A DNA stretch of 64,000 bases. Origin: an uncultured Alphaproteobacteria bacterium (GTDB lineage Bacteria > Pseudomonadota > Alphaproteobacteria > Rhizobiales > Beijerinckiaceae). The position numbers were made by a program, and so were the translations under genes. A model generated the notes under the pieces. That model saw nothing but the letters and a program-made list of their open reading frames with translations, was not told where the DNA came from and did no database searches. The stretch's first letter is position 1, and each line of letters opens with the position of its first letter. The DNA is taken from positions 564,041 to 628,040 of the forward strand of contig CAVQMU010000002.1 of NCBI GenBank assembly GCA_963713695.1, in the 5' to 3' direction. Below are positions 1 to 61,631 of the stretch, piece by piece.

Positions 1-556
1 TCGAGCATCATGGCGTCGGCGTAGCCTTTGCGCTCCGCCCTGTGCTTGGAAATGGTGCAGATCATGTAAAGGCCGGCGGCCTTGGAATGGCAGGGCGCGG
101 TCATGGGATCGGGGCGGCGGTAATCGGCGATGTCGAGCTTGATGCCCTTCATCTTTGTTTCCATGTCGAACATCGACGGCCAGTCCCATGCGGCGATGGC
201 GACGTTGATGGTGGCGTGCTGCGCCGCCACGGCCATCATTTCCGAACCGCGCCAGGCGACCGGCCGAACATAGCAGTTCTCGAAGCCGTTTTTCTCGACC
301 ACCAAAGCCTTGGCGGCGTCGAGTTCCTCCAGCGAATAGGGGATTTCGAAATCGAGCAATTGCGCCGAATTCTTGAAGCGCTCGGAATGTTCGCGCGTCT
401 TGAAGATCACGCCGCCATAGGCGCGCTCGCCTTCAAAGCAGCACGACGCGTAATGCAGCCCATGCGACAGGACATGCAGCTTCGCGTCCTTCCATGGGAC
501 CAGGGCGCCGTTCATCCAGATGAACCCATCGCGCTGGTCGAAAGGCAGGACAGACA
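1..556 (-). CDS. ilvE: branched-chain amino acid aminotransferase IlvE (N-terminal ~185 aa; 3' end lies beyond the window start)
   Basis: Minus-strand translation from the ATG at 554-556 reads MSVLPFDQRDGFIWMNGALVPWKDAKLHVLSHGLHYASCCFEGERAY..., a typical IlvE N-terminus. The plus-strand ORF 42..596 is its shadow. Confidence 0.85.
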
Positions 557-614
557 TCGCAGGCTCCTCAAAACGGCTCTTTTCCGGGAAGCTTGACGAC
601 TAGCAACCGACCTG

Positions 615-641
615 AAATATGTCAATAGAACTGACATATTT
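615..641. promoter_or_regulatory. perfect 10-bp inverted repeat AAATATGTCA-N7-TGACATATTT in the ilvE/marR divergent intergenic region; candidate MarR operator
   Basis: Palindrome read directly from the sequence, about 60 bp upstream of the MarR-family ORF. MarR regulators typically bind such dyads in their own promoters. Confidence 0.4.
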
Positions 642-700
642 TACCGGCGGCGCCGGGGAAAGGGTCTGGCTCCCGATGGAAGACGCTCTGCAGCGCAAGC

Positions 701-1183
701 TTGCGCAGCCGCGCCTTGTTCCGCGGGAGGTCGAACTCCGAGCCCATGTTCGACCTGATCGAACTGTTTTTCTTCGCCTATCGCGATTTCGTCGGCGACG
801 CCGACCGCTTGCTGGTGCGCTACAATTTCGGCCGCGCCCACCATCGCGTGCTGCATTTCGTCGATCGTCGCCCGGGCCTGGCCGTCGCCGAATTGCTGGA
901 CCTCCTGAAAATCACCAAGCAAAGCCTCAGCCGCGTGCTCAAGGACCTTCTCGACCAGACTTACATCGAGCAGCGGCCCGGCCTGTCCGATCGCCGCCAG
1001 CGCCTGCTGTACCCGACCGACAAGGGCCGCGCTCTGGCGCTGGAGCTGGCGCAATTGCAGTCGCGGCGCTTCGCCCGGGCCATGGACGGCTTGCCGGAAG
1101 GCGCGCGGGAGCAGGCGGCGGCCTTCCTCGCCGCCATGACCGATCGGACGACCTGGGATCCCGCCCCCGGAGAGACGGCATGA
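701..1183 (+). CDS. MarR-family transcriptional regulator
   Basis: Winged-helix MarR-like sequence (…LLDLLKITKQSLSRVLKDLLDQTYIEQRPGLSDRRQRLLYPTDKGRAL…). The real start may be the internal Met near 746. The stop overlaps the start of the next gene (ATGA). Confidence 0.8.
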   Translation: MRSRALFRGRSNSEPMFDLIELFFFAYRDFVGDADRLLVRYNFGRAHHRVLHFVDRRPGLAVAELLDLLKITKQSLSRVLKDLLDQTYIEQRPGLSDRRQRLLYPTDKGRALALELAQLQSRRFARAMDGLPEGAREQAAAFLAAMTDRTTWDPAPGETA

Positions 1184-1914
1184 TCGAAACAAACGCATTG
1201 CCGCCCGCCGACGACGCCATGCACTTGCTGATCGTCGATGACGACAGACGCATCCGCCAGCTGCTCACACGCTTCCTGCAAGGCGAGGGGTTTCGCGTCA
1301 CCTCGGCCGAAAGCGCCGAGGACGCCTACGCGCGATTGCGCGGCCTCCATTTCGACCTCATCATACTCGACGTGATGATGCCGGGCCAGAACGGCTATGA
1401 GTTCGCGGCCCGCATTCGCGCCGAAAATTCGCCGCTCGCCCAGGCGCCGATACTCATGCTCACCGCCCGCGCCGAAACCGAGGACCGGGTCAAGGGGCTC
1501 GAAGCCGGCGCCGACGATTATCTTCCGAAACCTTTCGATCCGCGCGAACTGTCCCTGCGCGTGACCTCCATCCTGCGTCGTTCCGCGCCGCGCGTGATCG
1601 CGCAGAGCGCGCCCGGCCAGAATGCGGTGCGCTTCGGCGACTTCGCCTTCGATCCGGACCGGGGCGAATTGCGCCAGGGCGACGAAGTGATCCGCATAAC
1701 CGAGCGCGAGCGCGACATGCTGCGCATCCTCGTCGAAAATCCCGGCGGGACGGTTTCGCGCGAAGCGCTCGGCGGCGGCGGCGGCGCGGCCAACGAGCGC
1801 ACGGTCGACGTGCAGGTCAACCGTCTCCGGCGGAAGATTGAGGCGGACCCGGCCAATCCGCTTCATCTGCAGACGGTGCGCGGCCTCGGCTACAAGCTGG
1901 CGGTCGATCGATGA
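1180..1914 (+). CDS. OmpR/PhoB-family response regulator (receiver plus winged-helix DNA-binding domain)
   Basis: LLIVDDDRRIRQLL…DLIILDVMMPGQNGYEF…LTARAETEDRVKGLEAGADDYLPKPFDPRELSLRV…TVDVQVNRLRRKIE…GLGYKL. ATGA overlap with the MarR stop. Confidence 0.9.
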   Translation: MIETNALPPADDAMHLLIVDDDRRIRQLLTRFLQGEGFRVTSAESAEDAYARLRGLHFDLIILDVMMPGQNGYEFAARIRAENSPLAQAPILMLTARAETEDRVKGLEAGADDYLPKPFDPRELSLRVTSILRRSAPRVIAQSAPGQNAVRFGDFAFDPDRGELRQGDEVIRITERERDMLRILVENPGGTVSREALGGGGGAANERTVDVQVNRLRRKIEADPANPLHLQTVRGLGYKLAVDR

Positions 1915-3278
1915 ATCCGGCGGCGCGGGCGCTTCTTCTCGGACGTCATGCCTGGCGCGCCTTCGCCCGTGGCGTCGCCAGCTTCATGCCCAAGGGGCTT
2001 TACGCCCGCTCGCTGCTCATCGTCATCGTGCCCATGGTCATCCTGCAATCGGCGATCGCGCTCGTCTTCATGGAGCGCCACTGGCAATTGGTGACATTTC
2101 GCTTGTCGAACGCCGTGACGCAGGACATTGCGGCGCTGATCGACATCCACCGCGACTTCGGCAAGCTCGATCCCGACAATTCGAAGCTCGAGGAGATCGC
2201 CCGCAAGCGGCTCAACCTGGAGGCGGAGATACTGCCTGCCGGGCCCTTGCCGCCAGCACTGCCAAAGCCCTTCTTCTCGCTGGTCGACCGCGCCATGTCC
2301 TCGGAAATCGGCCGCCTGATCCGGATGCCCTACTGGATCGACACGGTCGGGCAATCCGATTTCATCGAAGTGCGCATCGACATGGGCGACGCCATCCTGC
2401 GAGTCGTGGCGCATCGCAGCCAGGCCTATGCATCCAACACCCATATTTTCATCGTCTGGATGGTTGGCACCTCGCTGGTGCTGATCATTCTCGCCATTCT
2501 CTTCCTGCGCAACCAGATCAGGCCCATTCTGGCGCTGGCCGACGCCGCGGAAGAATTCGGCAAGGGGCGCGAGGTGGAGTTCCGGCCGCGCGGCGCCCGC
2601 GAAGTGCGCCGCGCCGCCTACGCCTTCATGGAAATGAAGCGCCGCATCGAGCGGGCGATGGAGCAGCGCACGACGATGCTCAACGGCGTCAGCCATGACC
2701 TTCGCACCATCCTGACCCGTTTCAAGCTGTCGCTGGCCCTGCTCGGCGACGAGGCGGAAGTGGAGGAATTGTCCGGCGACGTGGACGAGATGCAGCGCAT
2801 GCTCGAAGCCTATCTGGCTTTTGCCAGGGGCGACATCGGCGAGGCCGCCGCGCCGACCGACATTCCGGCCTTGCTTGGCGCCTTGCGCCAGGAATCGGAA
2901 AGGCTCGGCCACGAAACCCATGTGGTCTTCGCAGGCGAGCCGATCGCCACAGTGCGGCCCGACGCCTTCAAGCGCTGCCTCGCCAACCTTCTCAACAACG
3001 CCTTGCGGCACGGCGAAAAGATCAGCATCGAGGGCTCCTGCGACCAGAAATTCCTGCTGATCCATGTGGATGACGATGGACCGGGGATACCGCCGGATTC
3101 GCGCGAAAATGTCTTTCGGCCCTTCGTGCGGCTGGACGAGGCGCGCAACCAGGACGAAGGCGGCACGGGCCTTGGCCTGTCCATCGCCCGCGACGTGGCG
3201 CGCGCGCACGGCGGCGACGTCTTTCTCGCAAAAAGCCCGATGGGGGGCTTGCGCGCCAGCGTGCGCGTGCCTGTATAA
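1911..3278 (+). CDS. sensor histidine kinase (two TM segments, HAMP, HisKA, HATPase_c)
   Basis: H-box [14 protein letters not shown]-boxes (LNNALRHG…DDDGPGIP…[13 protein letters not shown]). ATGA start overlap with the response-regulator stop, so the three genes form one MarR-RR-HK operon. Confidence 0.9.
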
Positions 3279-3319
3279 GCAGGAAAGCGCCGGCCAGCGC
3301 AGCCGTCGGCCCGAAGGAC

Positions 3320-4177
3320 TTGCAAATGAACCTCGTTGAAATGGCTATGGCCGATCTCGCCGGCGCCGAGACTTTTCCGCTCGACGCCATCATGACCCTG
3401 CGCCAGAAATGGAGCGAGGCTCGCCCGGCTCTGATGGCGCGACTGGCTGCCTGCGTTTCCGGCGCCGATCGCTCGCCGGAGAACGCCGAGACGGTTTTTT
3501 TCGCCCTGCACCTGCTGGCGGAAAAGCGCGAAACCGAGGCTTTCGCGCCGCTGGTCTCGCTTTCGCTGGAAGGCGATGCGCTTTACGAGCTGATCGGCGA
3601 CGCCACCACCGAAACCCTGCCGCAGATTTTCATCAGCCTCTACGACGGCGATTTGCAAAAGCTGAAAGCGCTGGTCGAGTCGCCGCAGGCCGATCCATGG
3701 GCGCGCGTCGCGGCGCTCGAATGCCTTTCGTGGCTGGCGGCAGGCGGCGACATCCCGATGGAGGAGGCGCGCACATATCTCGGCCAGAGTTTCGAAACCC
3801 TGCAGCCGCGCGAGGCTGATCCAATCTGGTTTGGCTGGCAGAATTGCGTGGCGCTGCTCGGTTTTTCGGACCTCGAGCCGCAGGTGGTCCGCGCCTTCCG
3901 CCAGGGGCTGGTGGACAAGGAGGTTCTCGCCTTCGAGGACTTCAAGGCCGACCTGATCGCCAATCGCGGCGCGACGGACCGCCGCGCCCTGATGGAGGAG
4001 CGCGGGCTGAAACCCATTGACGATGCGCTGGAGGCGCTGGCGGCTTTCGATGGCGAGGAGGAAGAGGCCGAACCTGAAACGCCCGCGGCAAACCCCAACC
4101 GCGCCATCGGCCGCAACGATCCCTGTCCGTGTGGGAGCGGCAAGAAGTACAAGAAATGCTGTCTGGCGGCGGAGTGA
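3320..4177 (+). CDS. DUF1186/SEC-C-motif protein (YecA-like)
   Basis: C-terminal metal-binding SEC-C motif [15 protein letters not shown] with an acidic linker and a helical N-terminal domain. Confidence 0.75.
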
Positions 4178-4500
4178 GGGCTGCAGGTGAGCGTCCGAGT
4201 CGCGATCTGTATTATTTGCATGGATTTCCCGAAACAGTCCAGATAGTGTCGCCGAAATGAACGTTTCGAATGGTGCAACCATGCGTTTTGATCAATTTCT
4301 ATCCAAGAAATCAAAGAATAGAATCAATCGTCTTGTCGCAATTCCTCTTAAATCTGCCATTATAATATTCAAAGCCGTCCATGACGTTTTGATTAATCGA
4401 AACAACACGAAGGTGTCGTTCCAAAGGTTCAGCAACGGACGACAAAACGTCTTTATCTTGATCGCGTTGGTCATGAGCGGAAGGGTCGGATGCGCTGTCG

Positions 4501-5355
4501 GTGACGCTTATCGCGTTTACCAATGGCTGCCGTTCCGGATCTTTCTTGATCGGGTGCGAGTCGAGTCGGCGGCCGCAACCGGAAGAAATCCTGATTGTCA
4601 ATTACGATCAAAAGGCGGACGCAACATCTGGAAAACAGCGTGTTCTGCGGATATCAAATCTTTATTATACTGCGGAAAACAGCGAAAAGAGGCTGTTTTC
4701 TCCTTATTTTGCGCATCCTCAATTCTATCGTCGGCGGCTGCATGAGACCGTTGGGCGGATGAGGGATAAAAACAGGAACATAAGGATATTTTTCGCGGGA
4801 ACGAGAAGCAATGTATATTCGCGTTATTTCAAGTTCAATATGCTCAGCAGGGATAAGATAATCGACCGATTGCAAGCAAGATATGCGTCAACACTCAGCG
4901 CGGAGTCTTCGACCTTGGACAAGGCGCCATTCGTGATGGCCATGACCGAAGACACTCGCGACACCGTATCGAAGCACAAGCTCTCGATGGATTCGTATCT
5001 CGACGCCATGTCGCGTTCTGATTTTTTTATATGTCCGCCGGGGTTGCTGGTGCCCCACTCGCATAATATCGCGGAAGCGATGTCTGTCGGCACGATCCCG
5101 ATTACCAACTATCACGATTATATGCGCCCGAAGCTGACAGGCGGCCAGGACTGTCTCTCGTTCAATTCTCTGGAGGAGCTTGATGAGGCGGTCGACCGCG
5201 CGCTAGCGATGACTTCGGAAGAAGTCGAGCGTCTCCGCAAGAACGTGATTTCCTATTATAAAAAATACATGGATCCTGTAGCGTTCGGAGAAAAAATCAG
5301 GTCGTCCTCCAAGCTTGTCGAGGAAATAGTCGTCAACGACGAGTCTGGACTCTGA
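4501..5355 (+). CDS. exostosin/GT47-like glycosyltransferase (AT-rich, probably horizontally acquired)
   Basis: C-terminal motif SDFFICPPGLLVPHSHNIAEAMSVGTIPI resembles the exostosin GT47 signature (S.FCL.P.G…R..EA…GCIPV). The region 4200-5400 is conspicuously AT-rich against the GC-rich background. The start is uncertain. Confidence 0.6.
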   Translation: MTLIAFTNGCRSGSFLIGCESSRRPQPEEILIVNYDQKADATSGKQRVLRISNLYYTAENSEKRLFSPYFAHPQFYRRRLHETVGRMRDKNRNIRIFFAGTRSNVYSRYFKFNMLSRDKIIDRLQARYASTLSAESSTLDKAPFVMAMTEDTRDTVSKHKLSMDSYLDAMSRSDFFICPPGLLVPHSHNIAEAMSVGTIPITNYHDYMRPKLTGGQDCLSFNSLEELDEAVDRALAMTSEEVERLRKNVISYYKKYMDPVAFGEKIRSSSKLVEEIVVNDESGL

Positions 5356-5409
5356 CAGCGAATCCCGGCCGCAGCCGTTTTCCGGGCCCAAGTTCAACGC
5401 CGGTTGAAA

Positions 5410-6399
5410 TTACGCGGAGCGGATCGCGCCAATCGCATGGGGGCCATCGGAGTCCCTCAAGAGATTGTCGAAATAGGCGATGGTCTTGACCAAACCGTCG
5501 CGCAGCGGAACCGTCGGGCGCCAGTCGAGCACCTTTTCCGCTTTTTCAATGGTCGGTTGGCGTTGCTTCGGGTCATCCGAGGGCAGTGGCTGGAAAGCCA
5601 GGCGCGACCTGGAACCGGTGATTTCAATCACGAGTTCCGCCAATTCCTTGATCGTGAATTCCGTGGGATTGCCGATGTTGATCGGACCGGTCACTTCTGG
5701 GCCTGTCGCCATCATGCGGATTTTCGCTTCGATGAGGTCATCGACATAGCAGAACGAGCGCGTCTGGCCGCCGTCGCCAAAAAGGGTGATGTCTTCGCCC
5801 TTCAGCGCCTGGACGATGAAATTGGAGACGACGCGCCCGTCGCTTGGGTGCATGCGCGGTCCATAGGTGTTGAAGATGCGGACGACCTTGGCGGCGAGCT
5901 TGTGCTGCCGAATATAGTCGAAGACCAGGGTTTCCGCGCATCGTTTGCCCTCGTCGTAGCAGGCCCGGAAACCGATCGGATTGACGTTGCCCCAATATTC
6001 CTCCGGCTGCGGATGAACGCCCGGATCGCCGTAGACTTCCGACGTCGAGGCCTGCAGAAATTTAATGCGCAATCGTTTTGCCAGGCCCAGCATGTTGATC
6101 GCCCCGATGACGCTGGTCTTGGTCGTCTGCACGGGGTCATGCTGGTAGTGGATGGGCGAGGCCGGGCAGGCGAGGTTGTAGATTTCGTCCACTTCGACAT
6201 AGAGCGGAAACGTGACGTCGTGGCGCAAGAGCTCGAACGACTTGTGATCGAGCAGATGCGCGACGTTTCGCCGCGTGCCCGTGAAGAAATTGTCGACGCA
6301 GAGGACGTCGTGACCGGCGTCGAGCAGGCGCTCGCACAGGTGCGATCCGAGAAAGCCTGCGCCGCCAGTGACGAGAATTCGTTTATGCACGTCGGTCAC
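5410..6399 (-). CDS. uxs: UDP-glucuronate decarboxylase (UDP-xylose synthase, UXS)
   Basis: Collinear near-identity to eukaryotic and bacterial UXS1: [14 protein letters not shown]…VDNFFTG…YHLASPASP…[13 protein letters not shown]…IFNTYGPRM…DGRVVSNFI. Confidence 0.93.
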
Positions 6400-6527
6400 C
6401 CCGAGGAATGGCTGGATTGCAACCTGTCAAAGACATGGCCGCTTTTAACCTCGCCTTGTCCCCGAAGCAACGCGCCAGACAATGGCTGCGCTCTCGGCGC
6501 CGGGCCGAAATGCGGGGGCGGCAGTTT

Positions 6528-7778
6528 TCATTCCTGCAAATCCCACCAAATGTCCGGCTTCGAAGCCGGGCCGGAGCGCGCGCAAAGCGCATCCAACGCG
6601 GAACGAAATCGCTCCTCCGCCAGGTCGCCCTGCGAAATATTCAGAAAACTGTATGATTGTCCGCGCGCCCGCGCCAGAAGATAGAACCACGGCCGCAGAT
6701 GCTGTTCCTCAGGCAAGAAGCGATTGATTTCGAGAATTCTGAGCGAGGGCTTGCCGAAAACGAGATTGCTCAGGGCGGCGCCATGCGGCGCGATCACCGC
6801 CTGCGCATTATGGAAAAGTTCCGCCTGGCCAAGGAAATCGAGATCTTCAAGATGCACGGGTATAAACCCGCGGTTCCTTGCGTGGGTTTCGACAATGCTG
6901 ATCTCGCTTCCCTGGAGCCGTTGCGTGTCGCGCCTCTGGATCAGGATACGCGGCGGCGATGCCGGGTTGACGCGCAGCTTTTGCCGAATGGGATCATAAA
7001 GGCGATCATATTTCGCGACGCAGGGAAGGAGCGCCTTTTCCTGGCTGTCAATAAAAATCGAATGGACGCGGGGCGCTGTGTAGATTCCGGGCGGCAGTCG
7101 CACAATCTCGTCCGACAGGCCCGAAAGAACCAGCGACTGCTCCCATGTCCGTTCGCTGATGCCGGCTGACCAGACTTTGCTCTTGGGGCGGCGAAGGTCG
7201 GGCGTGGCAATGCGGAACGGCGGGCAACCGACGTGGCGCGCCATCAACATTTTCGGAAGCGCCAGACAAAGCCAATGATAATAATTGCCCCAGGCGTGGT
7301 CCACCCCGACAAAGACATCAAAGTCCAGGCGAACAGCTTGCGCGCGCAATGCGCCGAGGTCGGGGATCGGCAGCCGGTGATTTCGGAGCCGGGCGCTCTG
7401 TTCGACGGGATGCCCCAGCGAGTCCAGGAGCACTCCGTCCTGGCCGGGGCCTATCCAGAAATAGCCGTCGTTCAGGGTGTGGAAATTCAGCGTCAGTTCG
7501 CCTTGACCGGCATGGCGGTCAAGGAGGCGCTCGAGATCGGCAAAAGTCTGTCCCGCGTAGGCAGGCGCGACATGCGACTGCGGCGCAAAGGCGTCGCGCC
7601 AATTGGCGGTGGTTTCCAGCGGGTTAGTGGCGGAAAAAGTCGCGGCCGGATATGTTTGCGCTTTCCTGCGCCGAAACCAACGCGCCACGAACACCACTCC
7701 GGATTTCATTGGGAAAATTTCAAGCGTTTCGCCAATCCTATTGCATTGTTTAGGCGAAATGATCAACTTCCAGGTCAA
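6528..7778 (-). CDS. glycosyltransferase family 61 / DUF563 protein (xylosyl/GlcNAc-transferase-like)
   Basis: DUF563/GT61 signature HAWGNYYHWL and a C-terminal APHGAALSNLVF motif. The real start may be the internal Met near 7709. Confidence 0.75.
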   Translation of the reverse strand: MTWKLIISPKQCNRIGETLEIFPMKSGVVFVARWFRRRKAQTYPAATFSATNPLETTANWRDAFAPQSHVAPAYAGQTFADLERLLDRHAGQGELTLNFHTLNDGYFWIGPGQDGVLLDSLGHPVEQSARLRNHRLPIPDLGALRAQAVRLDFDVFVGVDHAWGNYYHWLCLALPKMLMARHVGCPPFRIATPDLRRPKSKVWSAGISERTWEQSLVLSGLSDEIVRLPPGIYTAPRVHSIFIDSQEKALLPCVAKYDRLYDPIRQKLRVNPASPPRILIQRRDTQRLQGSEISIVETHARNRGFIPVHLEDLDFLGQAELFHNAQAVIAPHGAALSNLVFGKPSLRILEINRFLPEEQHLRPWFYLLARARGQSYSFLNISQGDLAEERFRSALDALCARSGPASKPDIWWDLQE

Positions 7779-7835
7779 ATGTCGCGAACCCGGCTGCGCC
7801 GCCCCCGAACACGTTCGCCAGGCGCTTTGGCGAGG

Positions 7836-8816
7836 CTAGCGCCTGTTCACATAGTCAAAATTACATTTCTGGATCGTCCGCAGCGAGCCTGCCTGAGGCG
7901 GCCCGAGGGCGATCATTTTTTTGAACAGCGCCCTGTGCCTAGCCGAGAAGAGCGCTTTCACGCCGTAGGAAAAAACCTTCGTCAAATAAAATACGAAATA
8001 GTGGACGAATCCCCGATTTTTCCTGACGATATAAAGCAGTGAAATGTCCGATTCCAGCTTGATGATTTCCGGCTTCGCGAAGCTGGCCTGCCCGATGTGC
8101 CTGAAGCTCGCGCCGGAATAATAAACGGCCTTGTATCCGAGCGCTTTCAAGCGATAGCAGATGTCCATCTCCTCGTAGAACAGGAATATGTTCGGGTCGA
8201 ATCCGCCGGCGGCGGCCAGCGCTTCGAGACGAAACATCATGAAGCTGCCATAGACGAAATCGACGGTTACGGGCCGATCGTAAGTCGCCTTCGGGTCCGG
8301 CGGTCGCTGAGCGCTGAAACGGGAGCCGAGCCATCGTCCGAAAACCCGGCTCGCGAGCGTGTCGAATTCGCCAAACGACCGGCAAACCCGTCCGTTCATG
8401 TCCTTGTGCGTCGGCCCGGTCACGCCGACGTCGTCGTTGGCGTCCATATAGGCGACAAGCGGGGTGAAGGCGTCTTCATCGAACGAGGTGTCGCTGTTGA
8501 CGAAAGCGACATATTTGCCGGCGGAATAATTGAGGCCGAGCATGCATCCGAGCCCGAAACCCGCATTCAGGCAGTTGCGCGCCAGAATGAGCCTGTTGTT
8601 GGCCATGGCCCCGAGGCTGGCGCTCAGCGCTTCGAAATGCGCTGTCTCCGATCGGTTGTCGATGACGACGATTTCATAGGCCGTCGCCAGCGTCGACGCG
8701 GCGAATATCGCGACCAGGGATTTCACGCAATCGGCGGTAAGCTCCGGCGTGTTGAAATGAACGATGACGACGGTCAGAACCGGGCGGTCGCGATCGTCGA
8801 ATTTCTGGAAAAACAT
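7836..8816 (-). CDS. family-2 glycosyltransferase (GT-A fold)
   Basis: LTVVIVHFNTPELT…EIVVIDNRSE…NAGFG…YVAFVNSDT…; DxD-containing GT2 architecture. Confidence 0.85.
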   Translation of the reverse strand: MFFQKFDDRDRPVLTVVIVHFNTPELTADCVKSLVAIFAASTLATAYEIVVIDNRSETAHFEALSASLGAMANNRLILARNCLNAGFGLGCMLGLNYSAGKYVAFVNSDTSFDEDAFTPLVAYMDANDDVGVTGPTHKDMNGRVCRSFGEFDTLASRVFGRWLGSRFSAQRPPDPKATYDRPVTVDFVYGSFMMFRLEALAAAGGFDPNIFLFYEEMDICYRLKALGYKAVYYSGASFRHIGQASFAKPEIIKLESDISLLYIVRKNRGFVHYFVFYLTKVFSYGVKALFSARHRALFKKMIALGPPQAGSLRTIQKCNFDYVNRR

Positions 8817-8890
8817 TCAATTGCTCCGGCGTGGCGCTGGGGTCGCCCGGGGTCGTTTGCAGGCGGGGCGATGAAACCCCGCAGGCGCCG

Positions 8891-9580
8891 TCATTCCCGG
8901 CCGCCGAAAAGCCGTTCCGCCAGCCCCTTGAGCGGCGCCGCGAGCGGTTCGAGGAAACGCCGCGCATCTTCGGCCCGCGCCACGAAAATCTCTCCGCGTG
9001 CAAGTTCGCGGTCGAGCGCCGCCATGGTTTTCGCCTGGTCGGTCGCATCGTCCGAAAGCCAGGTGTGAAAGACATGCGTCCAGGCCAGTGTCAGCCCCTG
9101 CAGTTTAAGGGCGCCGAGGGGGCCTTCGCTCGAAAGTCCCGCCGCCTCGAGCATGAAGCGCAGTGAATTGAGGGCGAGCTGGTTGAGGGCGGGCAGGGCG
9201 GTCGGCTCATGCATCGCCCAGTGATTGATGTTTTTCAGCGCCGGCTTGTAGGGCACCATGGCGTCAAAACGCCGCATCAGCACGTCGAACAGCCGGTCTT
9301 TCGGGCTTTCGCCTGCAAGGTCGCCCGTCCCTTCGTGCAGATTGCCGCCGTCGAGCACCTGCTTGTCGATGCGCTTGGAGAAGGCGCCGAGAATGGCGCC
9401 TTTCGAGGGGAAGGCGTCGCGGAACTGGGTGAGGCTGACGCCGGCGCGGTCGGCGACGTCGGAGAGCGATATCTCTTCCCAGGGTTTTTTCGCGGCGAGG
9501 CCCATCAGGGCGTCGACGATTTTTTCGCGGATGTCGCCGGGGGCTTGCGCCTGCTTCTGGTCCTGATGAGGGTCGGTCAT
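8891..9580 (-). CDS. TetR/AcrR-family transcriptional regulator
   Basis: N-terminal HTH EISLSDVADRAGVSLTQFRDAFPSKGAIL followed by a helical ligand-binding domain. Lies directly upstream of, and co-oriented with, the GT2-GT61-uxs genes. Confidence 0.85.
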   Translation of the reverse strand: MTDPHQDQKQAQAPGDIREKIVDALMGLAAKKPWEEISLSDVADRAGVSLTQFRDAFPSKGAILGAFSKRIDKQVLDGGNLHEGTGDLAGESPKDRLFDVLMRRFDAMVPYKPALKNINHWAMHEPTALPALNQLALNSLRFMLEAAGLSSEGPLGALKLQGLTLAWTHVFHTWLSDDATDQAKTMAALDRELARGEIFVARAEDARRFLEPLAAPLKGLAERLFGGRE

Positions 9581-9649
9581 GGCTGTCTCTCCCGGCTATC
9601 TCGCGGAAACATGCGTCAAGAGGCGCAACGCCGCAAGGGCGGAAAGGAT

Positions 9650-10471
9650 TCAGCCGGAAAGTTCGCCCGCGCGCCGCGCCGCCGCTTCCGTCGCCCGCGC
9701 CATCAGGGCGGCGAGGCCGTCCGGGGCCATCAGCGCTTCGAGCGCCGCCTGCGTCGTGCCGCCGGGCGAGGTGACGTTTTTCCGCAAGGTTTCGGCTGAG
9801 GTTTCGGGCTGGAGGCGCAGTAATTCGCCCGAGCCCTCGACGGTCTTTCGCGCCAATCGCAGCGCCAGGTCCTGCGGCAGGCCGAGCGCCGCGCCGGCCT
9901 GCGCGAGCGCTTCGACGAGATAAAAGACATAGGCGGGGCCGGAGCCGGAAATCGCCGTCACCGCGTCGATCAGCCCTTCGAACTCAACCCATTCGACCGC
10001 GCCGACGCCGCCAAGCAGCAGATCGGCCTGATTCCGCTGCGCTTGCGATGTGGCGGCGCTGGCGAAGGCGCCGGTGATGCCGCGTCCGATCGCCGCGGGC
10101 GTGTTCGGCATGGCGCGGACGATGGAGGCAACGGGGAGGCGCGCCGAGAGATTGGCGATGGTCTTGCCGGCGAGGATGGATATGAGCAGGCTCCCCGTCG
10201 CAAACAACGGGGCCAGCGCGCTGGCGGAGGCGTCGAGCATCTGCGGCTTGATCGCCAGGACCACCACGTCGCTCGGCCTCGGCTCCGGGTTGAGCGCAAA
10301 TCCATTCGTCGCGGCGAGAGACGCGATCGCCTCGGAGGGATGCGGTTCGAAGACGGCGATGCCCCTGGCGTCTATGCCCGAGGCGAGCCAGCCGCCAAGC
10401 AGGGCCGCGCCCATCTTTCCTGCGCCGACAAGAGCGAGCGACGATTGCGCAATCGGGTCACGCGCGGACAT
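9650..10471 (-). CDS. proC: pyrroline-5-carboxylate reductase
   Basis: LALVGAGKMGAALL…VVLAIKPQ…ISGSGPAYVFYLVEAL…GGTTQAALEAL. Start ATG at 10469-10471 overlaps the ybjN stop (TAATG). Confidence 0.9.
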   Translation of the reverse strand: MSARDPIAQSSLALVGAGKMGAALLGGWLASGIDARGIAVFEPHPSEAIASLAATNGFALNPEPRPSDVVVLAIKPQMLDASASALAPLFATGSLLISILAGKTIANLSARLPVASIVRAMPNTPAAIGRGITGAFASAATSQAQRNQADLLLGGVGAVEWVEFEGLIDAVTAISGSGPAYVFYLVEALAQAGAALGLPQDLALRLARKTVEGSGELLRLQPETSAETLRKNVTSPGGTTQAALEALMAPDGLAALMARATEAAARRAGELSG

Positions 10472-10974
10472 TACGCCTCGCCGTGGGTGTCGAACATGGC
10501 GCCTTCCAGCGCCTCGGCCGTCGATTTGCCGGCCCAGACGACGAACTGGAACGATTGATAATAGCGCTCGCAGGCTTCCAGCGCATTGGCCAGCGCCGCC
10601 TCGCATTGCGCGTCATTGGCCTGCGCGCCGCCGGCAAGCAGCAGGGCGTGGCGGAACATCACCACGCCGTCCTTCGTCCAGACGTCGAAATGGCCGACCC
10701 AGAGTTGTTCGTTGATTTTCGAGACGAGGCTCGAAGCCTCCATGCGGCGGCGCTCGGGAACCTTGAGGTCGAAGGCGCAGGCGAGATGCAGCGCCTCGTG
10801 CTGCGGCAGCCAGGTAAAGGCGACATTGTAATCGGCCCAGCTTCCCGCGACGCTGATCGAGATTTCGTCGGGATCGTCGCGGTCGAAACTCCAGTCCTTC
10901 AGGCTGGCGATTCTTTCCACCACGTCCACCGGGTGCTCGACCCGTTCGTCCAATTCAATTCCAGAGTGCAACAT
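10471..10974 (-). CDS. YbjN-domain protein (putative sensory-transduction or chaperone-like)
   Basis: YbjN-like sequence. The conserved ybjN-proC arrangement of alphaproteobacteria is recalled from memory, not searched. Confidence 0.75.
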   Translation of the reverse strand: MLHSGIELDERVEHPVDVVERIASLKDWSFDRDDPDEISISVAGSWADYNVAFTWLPQHEALHLACAFDLKVPERRRMEASSLVSKINEQLWVGHFDVWTKDGVVMFRHALLLAGGAQANDAQCEAALANALEACERYYQSFQFVVWAGKSTAEALEGAMFDTHGEA

Positions 10975-11212
10975 CGATCGGTCCTGGGCGCGACGGGCGC
11001 GACAGTAGAGGAAACGCAGCGATACTCATGAAAACCCGACCGCGAGCGAAGCTGGCCATTCCCTCAGCGAATCACCCGGCAAAGCCAATATAGTCAGATT
11101 TGCACGGTAACGGAAAGTTGAGCCGAACTGCGGCGGTACTGAGGCAAGGTGCTGGATTCGCACGAAAACGTCCACCGGATGCATGGGGGCGTCCACAGCT
11201 AATCGCTTGCGA

Positions 11213-11243
11213 CGTGAAAAAACCGGCCCGCGATGCAGGCCGG
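11213..11243 (-). terminator. rho-independent terminator downstream of the ubiK-like gene
   Basis: Minus-strand reading CCGGCC-TGCATCGCG-GGCCGG followed by TTTTTT. Confidence 0.5.
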
Positions 11244-11301
11244 CACAAGAAAAGCCGAATCAATATTTGCAAGCGTTTTTTATTACGCCCCTTGAAATGA
11301 C

Positions 11302-11571
11302 TCAGGATTTGGTCTCCGGCGCCGCGGCGGTTCTCGCTTCAAGCTCCGCGATGCGCTTTTCAAGCGCGTCGTTGGCGTTGCGCGCGGCGACCGCCATGTC
11401 GCGCACCGCTTCGAATTCCTCGCGGTTGACCATGTCCATGTTGGAAAGCAGGCGCTCGACCTGGGACTTGATGGCGGCTTCGGCCTCGCGGCCCAGGCTG
11501 CGCGCCGCGCCGGCGGCGTCGTTGAACAGGCGCGACATGTCGTCGAAAAAGCGGGGACGCGGCGAGGCCAT
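11302..11571 (-). CDS. ubiK: UbiK/YqiC (BMFP) family accessory protein
   Basis: Coiled-coil about 90 aa (…LSNMDMVNREEFEAVRDMAVAARNANDALEKRIAELEAR…). ATG at 11569-11571 is preceded by a GGAGA Shine-Dalgarno. The longer ORF to 11637 is probably an upstream extension. Confidence 0.7.
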   Translation of the reverse strand: MASPRPRFFDDMSRLFNDAAGAARSLGREAEAAIKSQVERLLSNMDMVNREEFEAVRDMAVAARNANDALEKRIAELEARTAAAPETKS

Positions 11572-11742
11572 GAGTATCTCCGGTGGAAAAAACTGCGTTT
11601 CGCCGCAACAAATGGGCGCGAACGGCGGGAAACGCAAGAAGACCGCCGAAACTCTTTCGCCGGCGGCCGTCCGGCCCTTGCCGGACGCCGCGCCGCGCTT
11701 TACGGATTCGGCGTCGCTTCAAACAAGCGGTCAGGATTTGCC

Positions 11743-12585
11743 ATGCCGCTTTTTCTCCTGCCTTTCCCGGTCATCGATCCGGTCGCTGTCCATCTCGGGC
11801 CCTTGCCGATCCGCTGGTACGCCCTGGGCTACATCGTCTCGCTGGTGGCGGGCTGGCTGATCGCCGCGCGACTCGTTCGCAGCGACAGGCTTTTCGGCGA
11901 CTTGCCGCGGCCATCGGTCGAAAGCCTCGACGATCTCCTCGTCTACGTCGCCTTCGGCGCCGTGCTCGGCGGCCGCACCGGCTACGTGCTTTTCTACAAT
12001 CTCGATTATTTCCTGCGAAATCCTGGGGAAATCCCGATACTCTGGAACGGCGGCATGTCCTTCCACGGCGGCCTGGCGGGAGCGGCCCTGGGCGCGTGGC
12101 TTTTTGCGCGCCGCGTCAAAACGCCGTTGCTCACCGTAGGCGACCTCGTCTGCGCTGTCGCTCCGATCGGGCTCTTCCTGGTGCGCATCGCCAATTTCAT
12201 CAAGCCGGAATTATGGGGGCGCCCGACCGACGTCCCGTGGGCGATGGTCTTCCCCGGCGCGGGGCCGGAGCCGCGTCATCCCAGCCAGCTTTACGAGGCG
12301 GGGCTCGAAGGTCTCGTCCTTGGCCTGATCCTGGCTTTCGCCGTGCGGCGCGGCGCCTTTCGCCATCCCGGCTTGACCCTCGGGCTATTCGCGAGCCTTT
12401 ATGGTCTGGCTCGCATTTTCTGCGAGTTTTTTCGCGAACCGGATCCGCAGCTCGGCTTCCTGTTCGGCGGCGCGACCATGGGCATGTTGCTCTCGGCGCC
12501 ACTCGTGGGTCTCGGAGGCGTTTTGATCGCATTTTCTCTTCGCCGGCATCCCCTGCGACAAGAGGAAACTGCGGAAAATAATTGA
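11743..12585 (+). CDS. lgt: prolipoprotein diacylglyceryl transferase
   Basis: Lgt signature region (…HGGLAGAALGAW…RIANFIKPELWGRPTDVPWAMVFP…) in a multi-TM protein. Confidence 0.9.
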   Translation: MPLFLLPFPVIDPVAVHLGPLPIRWYALGYIVSLVAGWLIAARLVRSDRLFGDLPRPSVESLDDLLVYVAFGAVLGGRTGYVLFYNLDYFLRNPGEIPILWNGGMSFHGGLAGAALGAWLFARRVKTPLLTVGDLVCAVAPIGLFLVRIANFIKPELWGRPTDVPWAMVFPGAGPEPRHPSQLYEAGLEGLVLGLILAFAVRRGAFRHPGLTLGLFASLYGLARIFCEFFREPDPQLGFLFGGATMGMLLSAPLVGLGGVLIAFSLRRHPLRQEETAENN

Positions 12586-12600
12586 GCGGGAGGGCGGCAA

Positions 12601-13707
12601 ATGACCGACGTGCAAAAAAACGACCTCGGGGCGGAAATCCGGGAAATCATCGCCCAGGACGGACCCATTTCAATCGAGCGATTCATGGGCCTCGCCCTGA
12701 CGCATCCGACCAAGGGCTATTACACGACGCGCAATCCTTTCGGCGCCGCCGGCGATTTTGTCACCGCGCCCGACATTTCCCAGATGTTCGGCGAATTGTT
12801 CGGCCTCTGGGCGGCGCAGGTCTGGGCGCAGATCGGCTCGCCCCCATCGGTGCTGCTGGCGGAACTGGGGCCGGGGCGGGGCGTGCTGATGTCCGACGCC
12901 CTGCGCGCAGCCAGGGCTGCGCCGGAATTTTTCAACGCCATCAGCGTGCATCTCGTCGAGGCCAGCGACGTCCTCGCGCGGGAGCAGGCGGACAGGCTCG
13001 CCGCCTGCGGCCGTCCCGTCACCTGGCACAAGAGCTTCGACGACCTGCCGTCGGGACCCGCGATCGTCTTCGCCAATGAATTCTTCGACGCGCTGCCGGT
13101 GCGCCACTACGTCAAGACGCCGCAAGGCTGGCGGGAGAGGCTCGTCGGCCTCGACGGCGAGGGCGGCCTGTCCTTCGGCCTCAGTCCGGAGATCGAGCCC
13201 TATCTCAAGGCCAAGGCGGACGATGGCGTGGTTCTTGAGGTCGGCGCCGCTGCGCAAAGACTGATGACCCAGATTGCGGCGCGAGTCGCGACCGAAAACG
13301 GCGCGCTGCTGGCTGTCGATTACGGCTATGACCATACGGGCCTCGGCGAGACCCTGCAGGCGGTCAAGGCGCATCAATTCGTCGATCCGCTCGCGGAGCC
13401 GGGCGAGGCCGATCTCACCACCCACGTCGATTTCGCGGCTCTGGCGCGCGCGGCGTTGTCCGCCAATGCGCAGGTGTCCGGTCCCGTGGGGCAGGGCGAT
13501 TTCTTGCGCGAGATCGGCATTCTCCAGCGCGCCGACGCTTTAAAAAGTCGCGCGACGCCGGAACAGGCCCAGGATATCGACCAGGCCGTCGCGCGGCTGA
13601 CGGGGGCGGCCGACAATGAGATGGGGACTTTGTTCAAGGTTCTGGCGGTGACGCGGCGCGGCGTGAAGGACGTGCCGGGCTTTTCCGGGGACGACACGGC
13701 GGCATGA
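12601..13707 (+). CDS. class I SAM-dependent methyltransferase, MidA/NDUFAF7 family
   Basis: GPISIERFMGLAL…YYTTRNPFGAAGDFVTAPDISQMFGEL…LAELGPGRG. Conserved lgt-midA-pgeF order. Confidence 0.85.
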   Translation: MTDVQKNDLGAEIREIIAQDGPISIERFMGLALTHPTKGYYTTRNPFGAAGDFVTAPDISQMFGELFGLWAAQVWAQIGSPPSVLLAELGPGRGVLMSDALRAARAAPEFFNAISVHLVEASDVLAREQADRLAACGRPVTWHKSFDDLPSGPAIVFANEFFDALPVRHYVKTPQGWRERLVGLDGEGGLSFGLSPEIEPYLKAKADDGVVLEVGAAAQRLMTQIAARVATENGALLAVDYGYDHTGLGETLQAVKAHQFVDPLAEPGEADLTTHVDFAALARAALSANAQVSGPVGQGDFLREIGILQRADALKSRATPEQAQDIDQAVARLTGAADNEMGTLFKVLAVTRRGVKDVPGFSGDDTAA

Positions 13708-14519
13708 GCCAAGAAAACGATAAGCAAGGAAACGATAAGCAAGAAATCGATCACGTCGAGCGGGCCGCGATTCGCGCGCCGGCGCTTCAGGGCGTCAGGC
13801 ATGCTTTTTTCACGCGGCAGGGCGGCGTGTCCGAGGGCGTCTATGCCTCGCTCAACGGCGGCGTCGGCTCCAATGACGATCCCGCCGCCGTGGCGGAAAA
13901 CCGGGCCCGCATGGCGTCTGTTCTCGGCGTGAAGGCGGATAATTTCCTCGTGCCTTACCAGGTCCATTCGGCGGACGCCCTTGCGATCTCGGCCCCGTGG
14001 GCAGAGGGCGCGCGGCCGCGTTGCGACGGCTTGGTCACGGCGACGCCGGGACTTGGGCTGGGCGTCACAGGCGCCGATTGCGGCATTCTGCTCTTCGCCG
14101 ACAAGAGCGCGGGCGTAATCGGCGCGGCGCATTCTGGCTGGAAAGGCGCGCTGGGCGGCATGGTCGAGGCTTTGGTCGCCGCCATGGTGGATCTTGGAGC
14201 GCGGCGCGAAAACATTTGCGCCGCTCTGGGGCCGACCATCGGCCAGCAAAGCTACGAGGTCGGGGCGGAATTTTACGCGAAATTTTGCGTCGAGCACGCC
14301 GAATTTGCGAGATTTTTCAGAGCCTCGACACGGCCAGGCCATCACATGTTCGACCTGCCGGGCTTCATCGAAATGCGCGTGGAGCGGGCGCGGATCGGCG
14401 CTTTTGAAAACCTGCGCCTGGACACTTATTCCGACGAGGCGCGCTTCTATTCCTACCGCCGCATGACTCATCGGGGCGAACCGGACTACGGCCGGCTCGT
14501 GGCGGGAATAGCTTTGTGA
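13704..14519 (+). CDS. pgeF: peptidoglycan editing factor PgeF (YfiH/laccase-domain protein)
   Basis: …TRQGGVSEGVYASLN…VHSADA…CDGLVT…LGVTGADCGILLFAD…GAAHSGWKG… DUF152 motifs. Confidence 0.85.
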   Translation: MSQENDKQGNDKQEIDHVERAAIRAPALQGVRHAFFTRQGGVSEGVYASLNGGVGSNDDPAAVAENRARMASVLGVKADNFLVPYQVHSADALAISAPWAEGARPRCDGLVTATPGLGLGVTGADCGILLFADKSAGVIGAAHSGWKGALGGMVEALVAAMVDLGARRENICAALGPTIGQQSYEVGAEFYAKFCVEHAEFARFFRASTRPGHHMFDLPGFIEMRVERARIGAFENLRLDTYSDEARFYSYRRMTHRGEPDYGRLVAGIAL

Positions 14520-26962: not shown

Positions 26963-27250
26963 ACCTAAACGCCTCCGCTTTCCTTAACTCAGGTTCCTTA
27001 CGATCGGCGGAAGGGGAAGTTTCGAACATGCACTGTTGAGACGCGAATGGGGGAGCCATGCCTGCGATGTTGTTGGCGCATCGTAATATAAGCTTACCTA
27101 ACGTAAGCATGTATCAATAGAAATAAGGTATGTTGCGCGATAAGACAACAAAATAATGTAAAAATACCCGTAAATTCATAATTCGTTAACCAATACTTGT
27201 TAAAAACATGGTGTAATTTTGCTTTTGACCACTTTGTCGGACATTCAGGC

Positions 27251-29242
27251 ATGAATTTAACATTGCGCAGCGCGGGGCTCGCGGCCATTTCCGTCCTGCT
27301 TGCGGCGAGCGCGGGAACCATGGCCATTTCATTCTGGGCGAAGGGCGCGGCGCTGGAGCGGGCCGTCGCCGTCTCGAAGATCAATGCGCAGACACGCGAA
27401 GTGGTGATGCCTCTTGTCACGCTGATCAAGGACTTGCAGATCGATGTCGTGCAGGTCCAGCAGTTCCTGACCGACACTTCGGCGACGCGTGGTCTTGACG
27501 GTCTTGACGACGGTGTTGGCGAAGCCGCGAAGTTCGCCGAAAAGTTCGGCAAGGACGCAGAAGAGGCGCGCAAATTGGCCACCCGGCTTGGCGACGGAGA
27601 ATTGAAGGCCGGACTGGACCGGACGATCGAGGCTTTCCCGGCATATTACGCCATGGGGCGCAAGATGACGGAAGCCTATGTCGCGGAGGGGCCGGCCGGC
27701 GGCAACAAGCTGATGAGCGGCTTCGACAAGGTCGCCGACGCGCTTTCGGGCGAACTGGAAAAAGTGGTGAAACGGCGCGACGCCATTGTCGACGAAAGCG
27801 CCCAGCGAAGTCGCGATGACCTGAGCGAACTGGAGGGCACGATGTCGCGCGCCTCCAATCTCACCATTCTCGCCAATATGCTTTCGCTGGTTGTCCTGGG
27901 AATCGCGGCCGTCGGGCTGTTGAGGCGGGTCATCGGGCCGGTGCTGGAAATGGCCGGCTTTCTCGAAAATCTTGCTGAGGGCCATCTCGAAATGACGACG
28001 CGTCTGGGCGAGGGACAAGATGAAATTGGCCGCATGGCGCGCGCCGCCGACGTATTTCGCGAGAACGCCGTCGAGCGCGAGAGGCTTGAGGAGACCGCGC
28101 GAACCGAGCGCCAGACCGAGTTGCAGCGTCAGGCGCGGCTGGAGGAATTGATCGCGCAGTTCCGCACCGTGATCGGCGAGATCGTCATGTCCGTGGGCGC
28201 GGAGGCGGAGACCATGAGCGGCACGGCGAGCAAGCTCAACGACGTCGCTTTCCGCGCCGAACGAACGGCGGATTCCGCTCGCGTTGCGGCTGAGGAATCC
28301 TCGCACAACATCCGCGCCGTCTCCGTCGCGGCCGAGCAATTGAGCGCTTCGATCACCGAGATTTCGCAACAGATTCGCGGCGCCGGCGAAAAGGCCAGCG
28401 AGGCCACCGGCATCGCCCGCCGCACCGACGTGAATATTTCGAGCCTGGTCGAACTGGCCGGCAAGGTGGAGGCTATCGTCGCCTTGATCCGGGGCATCGC
28501 CCAGCAAACCAATCTCCTGGCGCTCAACGCCACCATCGAGGCGGCGCGCGCCGGCGATGCGGGCAAGGGATTCGCTGTAGTGGCGTCTGAAGTGAAGATG
28601 CTCGCCGGCCAGACCGCCAAGGCGACGGATGAGATCGCCGCGCAGGTCGCTGCGATCCAGCACGCCACCCAGGGCGCCGTCGAGGATCTGCGGGCAATCG
28701 CCAGCGCCGTGGCCGAAATCGACGAAATGACGAATGCGGTTGTTGCGTCGGTCGCGCAGCAGAGCGAGGCCACCGGCGAAATCGCCAGCTCGATCTCGCG
28801 CGCGTCGGACAGTTCCAGCACGGCTTCGCAAAATGTCGCCAGCGTCGCCCTGGTGATCGGCGAAACCAATTCCGAGGCTGGTCGCGTCACGACCGCCACG
28901 GGGCTCCTGTCGGGATCGGCGAAGCAATTGGCGGAGGCGGTCGAAAAATTCCTGCGCGACGTGACCCAGGATGTGAAAAACCGCCGCGCCGCCACGCGCC
29001 GGCTTTCGACCGAGGGCGTGGTGATTTTCACCAATGGGCTGCGCGCAAAAACCAAATTGATTGATATTTCGGATACGGGCGCCAAGCTGATCGCCCCCGA
29101 GGCATTGCGGAACGGCGACAGCTTCGTGATGGAATTCGAGGACGAGAGCAGGGCGCAGGCGCGCGTGGTCTGGTTGCGTGAAGGATTCGCCGGCGCGCAG
29201 TTCGATGTACCGCTGGGCGCGCGAGGCGACCAGGCTGCGTGA
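27251..29242 (+). CDS. methyl-accepting chemotaxis protein with a C-terminal PilZ (c-di-GMP-binding) domain
   Basis: N-terminal TM and sensor region, HAMP, MCP signalling domain (…[37 protein letters not shown]…). C-terminus has PilZ motifs RRAATRR (RxxxR) and DISDTG (DxSxxG). AT-rich promoter region 27090-27250 upstream. Confidence 0.9.
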
Positions 29243-43663: not shown

Positions 43664-44548
43664 CTAACGCTGCATCGCGCGATCGGGTTCCGCCTGGTTT
43701 GCCTGGCCGGCGAGCCCCATTCCGGATCTGGTCGCGCCTTGGCGTTTCAGCTCGTTCGTCACGACCTCGAAAAGCACGAGATTGGCGATGCCGAACGCAG
43801 TGGAGATCGGCACGTCCGCGGCGTCGCGCCCGTGCCCCATCACGACGCGGCCGATGCGGGGCTCATTGTGGCGCGCGTCGAACGTGAACCAGCGACCATC
43901 AAGGAAAACCTCGAACCATGCGCTGAAATCCATCGGCGCGGGATCGGGGGGAACGCCGATATCGCCGAGATATCCTGTGCAATAACGTGCGGGCATGTTC
44001 ATGCAGCGGCAGAGCGCGATTGCGAGGTGAGCGAAGTCGCGACAGACGCCGATGCCCTCATGCATCGAGTCGCTGGCGCAACGCGTGGGGCGCGCGTCGG
44101 GATAGCTGAAGCGGATCTTTTCGTGCACGAAATCGCAGATCGCCTGCACGCGGCGGTAGCCGCCGGCGATATTGCCGAAATTCGCCCAGGCGAAATCCTG
44201 GAGCTTGTCGCTGTCGCAATAGCGGCTCGATGTCAGGTAGATCAGCACGTCGTCGGGAAGCCGGGCGACGGGCGTGAGGTCTTCGTCAGGCGGCGTTTCC
44301 TCCCGCTCGCCGGAATCGGCGATGACGAAATGATTTTTGAACGCGACACGGCCGGGCGGCGCAACAAGCCGCGTGACGCGATTTCCAAACACATCGAGAT
44401 AGGCGGACATTGGCAGGATCGGGTCCGACAGGATTATGTCAGGCGATCGTAAGTCGGCCTCGCGCGACGGATGGATATTGAGCTGCAACAGCATCGGCGT
44501 TTCCGCCGGACAGTCGAATGCGATATGAAAACCGGCTTCAATCAGCAT
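43664..44548 (-). CDS. transglutaminase-like superfamily protein (Bact_transglu_N plus TGase core)
   Basis: …GIGVCRDFAHLAIALCRCMNMPARYCTGY… with conserved Cys/His/Asp core residues. Confidence 0.8.
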   Translation of the reverse strand: MLIEAGFHIAFDCPAETPMLLQLNIHPSREADLRSPDIILSDPILPMSAYLDVFGNRVTRLVAPPGRVAFKNHFVIADSGEREETPPDEDLTPVARLPDDVLIYLTSSRYCDSDKLQDFAWANFGNIAGGYRRVQAICDFVHEKIRFSYPDARPTRCASDSMHEGIGVCRDFAHLAIALCRCMNMPARYCTGYLGDIGVPPDPAPMDFSAWFEVFLDGRWFTFDARHNEPRIGRVVMGHGRDAADVPISTAFGIANLVLFEVVTNELKRQGATRSGMGLAGQANQAEPDRAMQR

Positions 44549-61625: not shown

Positions 61626-61631
61626 CGGGGG

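Follow-up and report, generated by a model that had tools for sequence, protein, structure and literature searches.

Does a UDP-xylose synthase gene lying beside a few glycosyltransferase (GT) genes point to a bacterial pathway for xylose-containing glycans? The question is raised by a locus in a 64,000-nucleotide stretch of contig CAVQMU010000002.1 (positions 564,041 to 628,040; assembly GCA_963713695.1) from an uncultured member of the Beijerinckiaceae, referred to here as the window. Within it, between 4180 and 8899, genes for a UDP-xylose synthase (UXS), a GT2 and a GT61 transferase and an AT-rich transferase of the GT-B type lie together. A preliminary description read them as an accessory xylose-glycan locus that pairs UXS with transferases of mostly eukaryotic families. 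We favour, with confidence that is about evenly balanced, a small mosaic, horizontally acquired glycan-decoration cassette, possibly adding xylose to a surface glycan that is made elsewhere.

The insert and its chromosomal site

The cassette fills a strain-specific insert of 4.72 kb (4180..8899, no strand assigned), which lies in the convergent 3'-3' gap between two backbone genes, one for a DUF1186/SEC-C motif protein and one for a TetR/AcrR-like regulator. Its limits come from a blastn comparison with L009, a contig whose TetR is 81% identical to that of the window. Alignment between the two is confined to 14512..8900 and 4179..1, and because homology breaks at 4179/4180 and at 8899/8900, a few bases from the stop codons of both convergent backbone genes, the insert is placed at 4180-8899. 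The cassette is missing at the same site both in the 81%-related L009 and in Rhodoblastus acidophilus.

The insert also departs from its surroundings in composition, with a GC content of 0.566 vs 0.644-0.651 in the flanks. GC at third codon positions (GC3) is 0.75 in the GT2 gene, 0.69 in the GT61 gene, 0.77 in the UXS gene and 0.53-0.59 in the GT-B gene, with backbone genes at 0.76-0.84. The GT-B gene, at 45-50% GC vs 64-65% in the flanks, forms the lowest-GC 1.1 kb of the 64-kb window (0.48 vs a mean of 0.618 with a standard deviation of 0.036, about 3.8 standard deviations lower), and its intact homologues are likewise low (49-57% GC). This layered composition would make the insert a mosaic, the GT-B gene having come from a donor lineage of lower GC. 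Absence at the same site in relatives and a deviant composition mark the locus as accessory and horizontally acquired; on both the AT-rich transferase gene and its horizontal acquisition, the preliminary description is upheld by the GC and GC3 profile and by the comparison with relatives.

The TetR/AcrR-like regulator gene (8891..9580, minus strand) marks the right boundary and is a backbone gene, not cargo. At E < 1e-20 TetR has 5,559 homologues, with identities of 70-83% across Rhodoblastus and of 57% in Beijerinckia; from these and from the GT61 homologues the host of the window is taken to be a Rhodoblastus-like bacterium of the Hyphomicrobiales. The gene directly follows proC in L009 and in R. 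acidophilus (L010), without these GT genes downstream, an ABC transporter operon following it in R. acidophilus. Homology with L009 covers TetR and reaches 8900, 9 bp from its stop codon (8891-8893). Going by these comparisons, TetR is a vertically inherited backbone gene and a pre-existing neighbour of the insert, and the earlier view of it as a part or regulator of the acquired operon is not supported.

The gene order and orientation first reported are confirmed by ORF positions and Pfam. On the minus strand, in order of transcription, lie the TetR-like, GT2, GT61 and extended short-chain dehydrogenase/reductase (SDR; UXS-type) genes, separated by 74 bp (TetR-GT2), 57-126 bp (GT2-GT61) and 128 bp (GT61-UXS). 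The AT-rich gene, on the plus strand, is convergent with the SDR gene; its end at 5355 leaves 54 bp between the two. Antisense ORFs over the GT genes (e.g. 5404-6684, 7233-8042 and 8097-9068, all on the plus strand) were dismissed as high-GC artefacts, because the genes with Pfam matches and homologue support are on the other strand and because a GC3-based gene-picking heuristic passed them over.

The left boundary is formed by the gene for the protein with DUF1186 and SEC-C motifs (3320..4177, plus strand; Pfam), a backbone gene with an 84% identical orthologue at the matching position in L009. Left of it lie a histidine kinase gene (1911-3278) and then a response regulator gene, the two-component operon spanning about 1180-3278; to the right of TetR come proC (9650-10456), a YbjN-like gene, a BMFP gene and lgt. 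The site had been described as lying between proC and a two-component operon. Both are indeed nearby, but each stands one gene further out, the immediate neighbours being DUF1186/SEC-C and TetR.

In L009 the order is carA...pgeF-methyltransferase-lgt-BMFP-ybjN-proC-TetR, followed by three unrelated small genes and then by DUF1186/SEC-C-histidine kinase-response regulator-MarR. The three small genes stand at the cassette's site (L009 6652-9060, 2.4 kb) and encode proteins of 139, 61 and 301 amino acids, the last of which matches VWA faintly. With these different small genes in L009, the 3'-3' gap between TetR and DUF1186 is a recurrent variable slot. In R. acidophilus (L010, GCA_022760755.1), a group of genes for a GT61 protein, a methyltransferase, a GT4 protein and a 522-amino-acid GT adjoins pgeF at 1-4531, on the opposite side of the conserved lgt-proC-TetR backbone from the cassette's site. 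Glycan-gene hotspots seem to be present at both edges of this backbone segment in Rhodoblastus.

There are no tRNA genes in the window, and no significant flanking repeats or Rfam elements mark the insert. Mobility genes are absent from the insert site, the nearest transposase and integrase being about 50 kb off. Promoter and terminator scans gave counts no different from shuffled expectation.

The genes of the cassette

The gene at 5410..6399 (minus strand) encodes a 329-amino-acid protein that is predicted to be a bona fide UDP-glucuronate decarboxylase (UDP-xylose synthase), a confident yet unremarkable assignment. In a phmmer search of the PDB it matches human UXS1 (4gll) at E = 4e-122, with 57% identity over 309 residues and its residues 5-313 aligned with human residues 5-311, and its Pfam matches are Epimerase and GDP_Man_Dehyd. 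The motifs are intact, being identical to those of human UXS1 or conservatively replaced: the GxxGxxG NAD site (GGAGFLGSH), STSE (STSEVYGDP) and YDEGK (ACYDEGKR). With this similarity and these catalytic motifs, the identity given in the preliminary description holds. The protein falls below every NCBIfam equivalog cut-off, scoring 99.6 vs 294 bits with the Ralstonia-type bifunctional enzyme model, and the ArnA models are also unreached. Its relatives in metagenomes number at least 599, the best 80 of them at 68-78% identity, and homologues abound in bacteria. That bacteria possess UXS enzymes is well established (Gu et al., 2011; Coyne et al., 2011; both as cited in PMC5607165). SmUxs1 of Sinorhizobium meliloti, BfUxs1/2 of Bacteroides fragilis and human UXS1 share with it a full-length SDR architecture and the NAD-binding and catalytic motifs. 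Where it differs from the other UXS loci examined is in its genomic partners, GT61 and GT2.

For these two partners the family assignments first made also stand, both scoring above the Pfam cut-offs. The GT61 (PF04577/DUF563) protein (6528..7709, minus strand; 393 amino acids from the ATG at 7709, the ORF extending to a TTG at 7778) matches PF04577 with 52.5 bits vs a cut-off of 27 (E = 7.9e-14) over profile positions 1-136 of 137, and a 393-amino-acid protein in public data (P0068) is 100% identical to it. The GT2 protein (7836..8816, minus strand; 326 amino acids) matches PF00535 with 60.8 bits vs a cut-off of 23.3. A hydropathy scan found no clear membrane segments in any of the four insert proteins. 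A near-identical contig comes from another dataset (L004, Logan ERR11563597; 99.87% identical to window 6185-9285). In it a one-base gap splits the GT2 gene at about residue 270, which could be decay of the cassette at strain level or an indel from sequencing.

A single scan of 185,579 representative genomes with the window GT61 gave one relative, that of Rhodoblastus sphagnicola (49% identity). It is flanked by a GT4 gene and by a GT2 gene whose product is 48% identical to the window GT2, with no UXS; GT2-GT61 is a recurring pair independent of UXS. Other GT61 relatives are about 50% identical and often fused to methyltransferase domains, which the window protein does not have, and a close relative in L008 adjoins a UDP-galactopyranose mutase gene. 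Fusions of 600-700 amino acids between GT61 and S-adenosylmethionine-dependent methyltransferase domains (PF13578 and others) are seen in P0069, P0070, P0073 and P0074 and at L008 10001-11935. Such fusions hint that this GT61 subfamily may make O-methylated sugars.

Both the GT61 and the GT-B gene had been presented as eukaryote-like, a framing that is not borne out. All detected relatives of the two are bacterial or metagenomic, the few source-named GT61 relatives are labelled 'capsular polysaccharide biosynthesis protein' or 'glycosyltransferase family 61', and capsular polysaccharide clusters of bacteria are reported to contain GT61/DUF563 genes (e.g. Vibrio sp. KMM 8419; PMC11641403). With the GT61 family at large (plant beta-1,2-xylosyltransferases, XAT and XAX1; animal EOGT and POMGNT2; bacterial DUF563 proteins) the window protein shares PF04577 above threshold, and like the bacterial DUF563 'capsular polysaccharide biosynthesis proteins' it sits among other GT genes. 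It differs from the characterised GT61 enzymes in showing only marginal similarity to them, the best PDB match being POMGNT2 at E = 0.3. No bacterial GT61 with characterised activity was found. Within this family, EOGT and POMGNT2 are N-acetylglucosamine (GlcNAc) transferases.

By analogy with these two eukaryotic enzymes, GT61, or the GT61/GT2 pair, might glycosylate a protein and not a polysaccharide. Such a role would suit two soluble, cytoplasmic transferases with no polysaccharide assembly genes nearby, and a 49-53% identical GT61 homologue (L007) adjoins type I secretion ABC/HlyD genes. We nevertheless regard it as highly improbable, given that the insert encodes no candidate acceptor protein, that the other homologue contexts are polysaccharide-like (GLF, GT4, methyltransferases) and that the few source-named relatives are labelled as capsular polysaccharide proteins. 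As for L007 itself, the homologue, of 702 amino acids, stands head-to-head with the ABC/HlyD-like genes and a gene for a 580-amino-acid protein without a Pfam match (5805-12109); resolvase, ParB and RepB genes are present on the same contig, and the set may be a plasmid-borne protein-glycosylation or secretion module.

The AT-rich gene was first described as GT47/exostosin-like, which proves to be a weak assignment. The window protein scores 23.7 bits with Exostosin_GT47 (PF03016), under the Pfam cut-off of 33.4. Its sole above-threshold Pfam match, to RXYLT1_C (PF24785; 30.4 bits vs a cut-off of 27), is local, covering profile positions 59-112 of 187 (54 positions). An intact homologue (P0024) reaches 29 bits with Exostosin_GT47, again below the cut-off, and 18.6 bits with RXYLT1_C, and among 58 family members PF03016 is matched at E < 0.01 by 48 and PF24785 by 46. 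The AlphaFold2 model of P0024 (pLDDT 92.3) has a two-Rossmann GT-B fold of a generic kind: in Foldseek it matches glycogen synthase, A075L and EXT1/2, all with TM-scores of 0.26-0.46, and the match to A075L (GT114) has E = 9e-6 yet a TM-score of 0.26-0.33. The family profile found no significant sequence match in the PDB. The protein is most honestly described as belonging to a GT-B family of bacteria that is uncharacterised and has a nucleotide-sugar motif like that of GT47/RXYLT1.

This family is neither rare nor eukaryotic. An exhaustive profile search of cluster representatives returned 1,549 members at E <= 0.001, 1,143 at E <= 1e-10 and 890 at E <= 1e-30. In four contexts the homologues reside in large clusters of the O-antigen/exopolysaccharide (EPS) type, with Wzm/Wzt, Wzy, GT2, GT4, GT25 and methyltransferase genes. 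An epimerase beside the homologue in L002 was considered as a UXS and rejected, being GalE-like with 25% identity.

In the window the AT-rich gene (4257..5355, plus strand; Pfam RXYLT1_C and Exostosin_GT47) is a real gene, as first noted, and forms the lowest-GC stretch, but tblastn and a deletion scan show it to occupy two frames and not one ORF. Its N-terminal part is read in the frame of ATG 4257/4281 up to about 4565, and its C-terminal part in the following frame until a stop at 5355. The closest relatives are about 50% identical, all metagenomic and 340-370 amino acids long, and three homologues align by tblastn in adjacent frames, with residues ~17-82 at 4314-4565 and residues ~83-338 at 4570-5349. 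The deletion scan, scored against five homologues, locates one extra base at 4562..4582 (plus strand): deleting any single base there gives a 365-amino-acid ORF collinear with the homologues and 49% identical to P0006. The best deletion, C4567 in GAGT[C]GGCGG, yields RVRVEWRPQPEE, fitting the family consensus RINWRxP, and restores a conserved tryptophan (RVEWR vs RINWR in the family). This is a single lesion, outside any homopolymer, with no stop codons in either half.

Programmed frameshifting was set aside, there being no slippery sequence and all homologues being single ORFs, and P0249 (284 amino acids) was rejected as the same protein as the truncated ORF, being only 44% identical. The best protein match to the gene in a 5.8-billion-protein collection has at most 54% identity, while the adjacent GT61 and TetR are matched at 100%; that no protein above 54% is on record suggests that the source annotation treats the gene as a pseudogene. 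In this assembly its product would be inactive or N-terminally truncated. The frameshifts in the GT-B gene and/or the L004 GT2 gene may be assembly errors, because related contigs of the same ENA study (L009) show many split genes and are long-read-like; the position of the extra GT-B base outside any homopolymer speaks against this.

Lesions of this kind could also mean that the polysaccharide island was once larger and that the cassette is its decaying, non-functional remnant, a reading consistent with the frameshifted GT-B gene and its likely pseudogene annotation, with the GT2 frameshift in near-identical L004 and with a cassette that has no export and initiation genes. It seems quite unlikely to us. 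The UXS, GT61 and GT2 genes are full-length ORFs with intact motifs, the GT-B gene has one lesion only and both its halves are stop-free, and one or both frameshifts may have arisen in assembly, as noted above.

Xylose and the role of the cassette

Pfam searches of the insert and of about 55 window ORFs found no initiating phosphoglycosyltransferase, flippase (Wzx), Wzy polymerase or ABC exporter (Wzm/Wzt). The cassette is not a self-contained polysaccharide biosynthesis locus, whether Wzx/Wzy- or ABC-dependent. A decoration module is favoured because of this absence of assembly and export genes and because the insert proteins are without a clear membrane segment. In such a module UXS would convert UDP-glucuronate, supplied by a dehydrogenase encoded elsewhere, to UDP-xylose. 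The soluble GT2 and GT61 would then act as a pair that attaches one or two sugars, xylose probably among them, as side chains or terminal residues of a lipid-linked surface glycan (O-antigen or core of the lipopolysaccharide (LPS), or EPS), the initiation, polymerisation and export of which would be encoded elsewhere. The GT-B transferase, from a lower-GC donor, would be out of action or N-terminally truncated through the one-base insertion, and TetR would at most supply read-through transcription into GT2-GT61-UXS.

Xylosyltransferase activity of GT61 and of the GT-B family is plausible by analogy. Plant beta-1,2-XylT xylosyltransferases belong to GT61 (PMC12579940). Of the distant relatives of the GT-B family, RXYLT1/TMEM5 uses UDP-xylose (PMC4924997), and the chlorovirus enzyme A075L (GT114), once annotated as an exostosin, is a beta-xylosyltransferase that uses UDP-xylose (PMC11571054). 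A more specific proposal, that GT61 and an intact GT-B enzyme are both UDP-xylose-dependent xylosyltransferases and together with UXS and GT2 give the LPS or EPS of an acidophilic purple bacterium an undescribed side chain containing xylose, is tentative and in our judgement rather unlikely.

Several observations weigh against a role in xylose decoration. In 80 UXS loci (684 kb), which were searched by tblastn using the proteins of the island together with a diverse set of ten GT61 and GT-B homologues, UXS had no GT61 or GT-B neighbour. UXS is likewise absent from all four GT-B contexts, from the three contexts of close GT61 relatives and from one further Pfam-annotated GT61 locus in R. acidophilus, and the GT2-GT61 pair of R. 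sphagnicola is without an adjacent UXS. A UDP-glucose dehydrogenase is missing among the window ORFs scanned with Pfam. The gaps of 57-128 bp between the cassette genes leave their co-transcription presumptive, one of the four genes is disrupted, the GT2 gene is split in L004, and donor and acceptor specificities cannot be read from sequence. The prediction of a xylosylated glycan from co-occurrence with UXS is not sustained at these other loci (four GT-B, three plus one GT61 and 80 UXS); a xylose function of the cassette is deduced from adjacency at this one locus.

UXS and the transferases may instead have become neighbours by an accident of mosaic assembly. GT2-GT61 would then use other donors (UDP-Glc, UDP-GlcNAc or UDP-Gal), and UDP-xylose, or UDP-L-arabinose formed from it by an epimerase, would go to transferases encoded elsewhere. 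The R. sphagnicola pair, with its GT4 and no UXS, fits this explanation, as do the 80 UXS loci lacking any detectable GT61 or GT-B homologue, the close GT61 homologues that adjoin UDP-galactopyranose mutase (L008) or type I secretion genes (L007) and not UXS, and the presence of the GlcNAc transferases EOGT and POMGNT2 among known GT61 members. On the other side, the three genes are co-oriented, have a similar intermediate GC content and share one insert, for which functional coupling is the simplest explanation, and we know of no role for UDP-xylose in bacteria other than as a glycosyl donor. We consider the accidental arrangement rather unlikely and retain the glycan-decoration cassette as the preferred reading. 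Among the loci compared, the combination of UXS, GT61, GT2 and GT-B appears unique to this strain, and it may be new to the literature.

Related systems, the rest of the window and significance

The cassette resembles the O-antigen/EPS modification islands of Gram-negative bacteria in being strain-specific, of deviant composition and a mosaic of GT genes with one nucleotide-sugar gene, set between housekeeping genes. It differs from them in having four genes only, and no Wzx/Wzy/Wzm/Wzt, initiating transferase, mobility genes, tRNA or flanking repeats. It is probably an ordinary kind of accessory surface-glycan locus and not a eukaryote-like pathway.

Elsewhere in the window, a GT87-family glycosyltransferase (membrane GT-C type) is encoded at 35682-36941 amid housekeeping genes, unlinked to the cassette. 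A second low-GC stretch (~0.53) at 55800-57100 holds small ORFs without Pfam matches and a gene for a Crp/FNR-type regulator (57025-57735). After it come a Mutator-family transposase gene (59346-60572), a gene for a phage-type integrase (60687-61625) and one for an AAA_25 protein (62736-63998); the regions 55800-57100 and 59346-61800 are probably a mobile element or island. At 52474-55764 lies a gene for a 1,096-amino-acid protein with an N-terminal sterile alpha motif domain and adenylate/guanylate cyclase and AAA_16 ATPase domains. The sterile alpha motif domain is unusual in bacteria and eukaryote-like. On the minus strand, ORFs of 884 and 560 amino acids without Pfam matches (47479-51865) have an unusually high second-position GC and adjoin two transglutaminase-like genes (43664-46238); they may be wrongly chosen frames or novel proteins. 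A methyl-accepting chemotaxis protein encoded at 27197-29242 has a C-terminal PilZ domain, which suggests that it may signal in response to c-di-GMP.

If the xylose link is true, the cassette would offer a compact handle on a first function for bacterial GT61/DUF563 proteins, and likewise on the GT-B family, which is uncharacterised and widespread among O-antigen/EPS loci from environmental sources. Its GT61 would, to our knowledge, be the first functionally assigned bacterial member of that family, and the GT-B family, of about 1,100-1,500 clusters, would represent a new family of bacterial xylosyltransferases, with RXYLT1, GT47 and GT114 as distant relatives. Otherwise, the locus would be another case of strain-level variation of surface glycans through mosaic gene cassettes.

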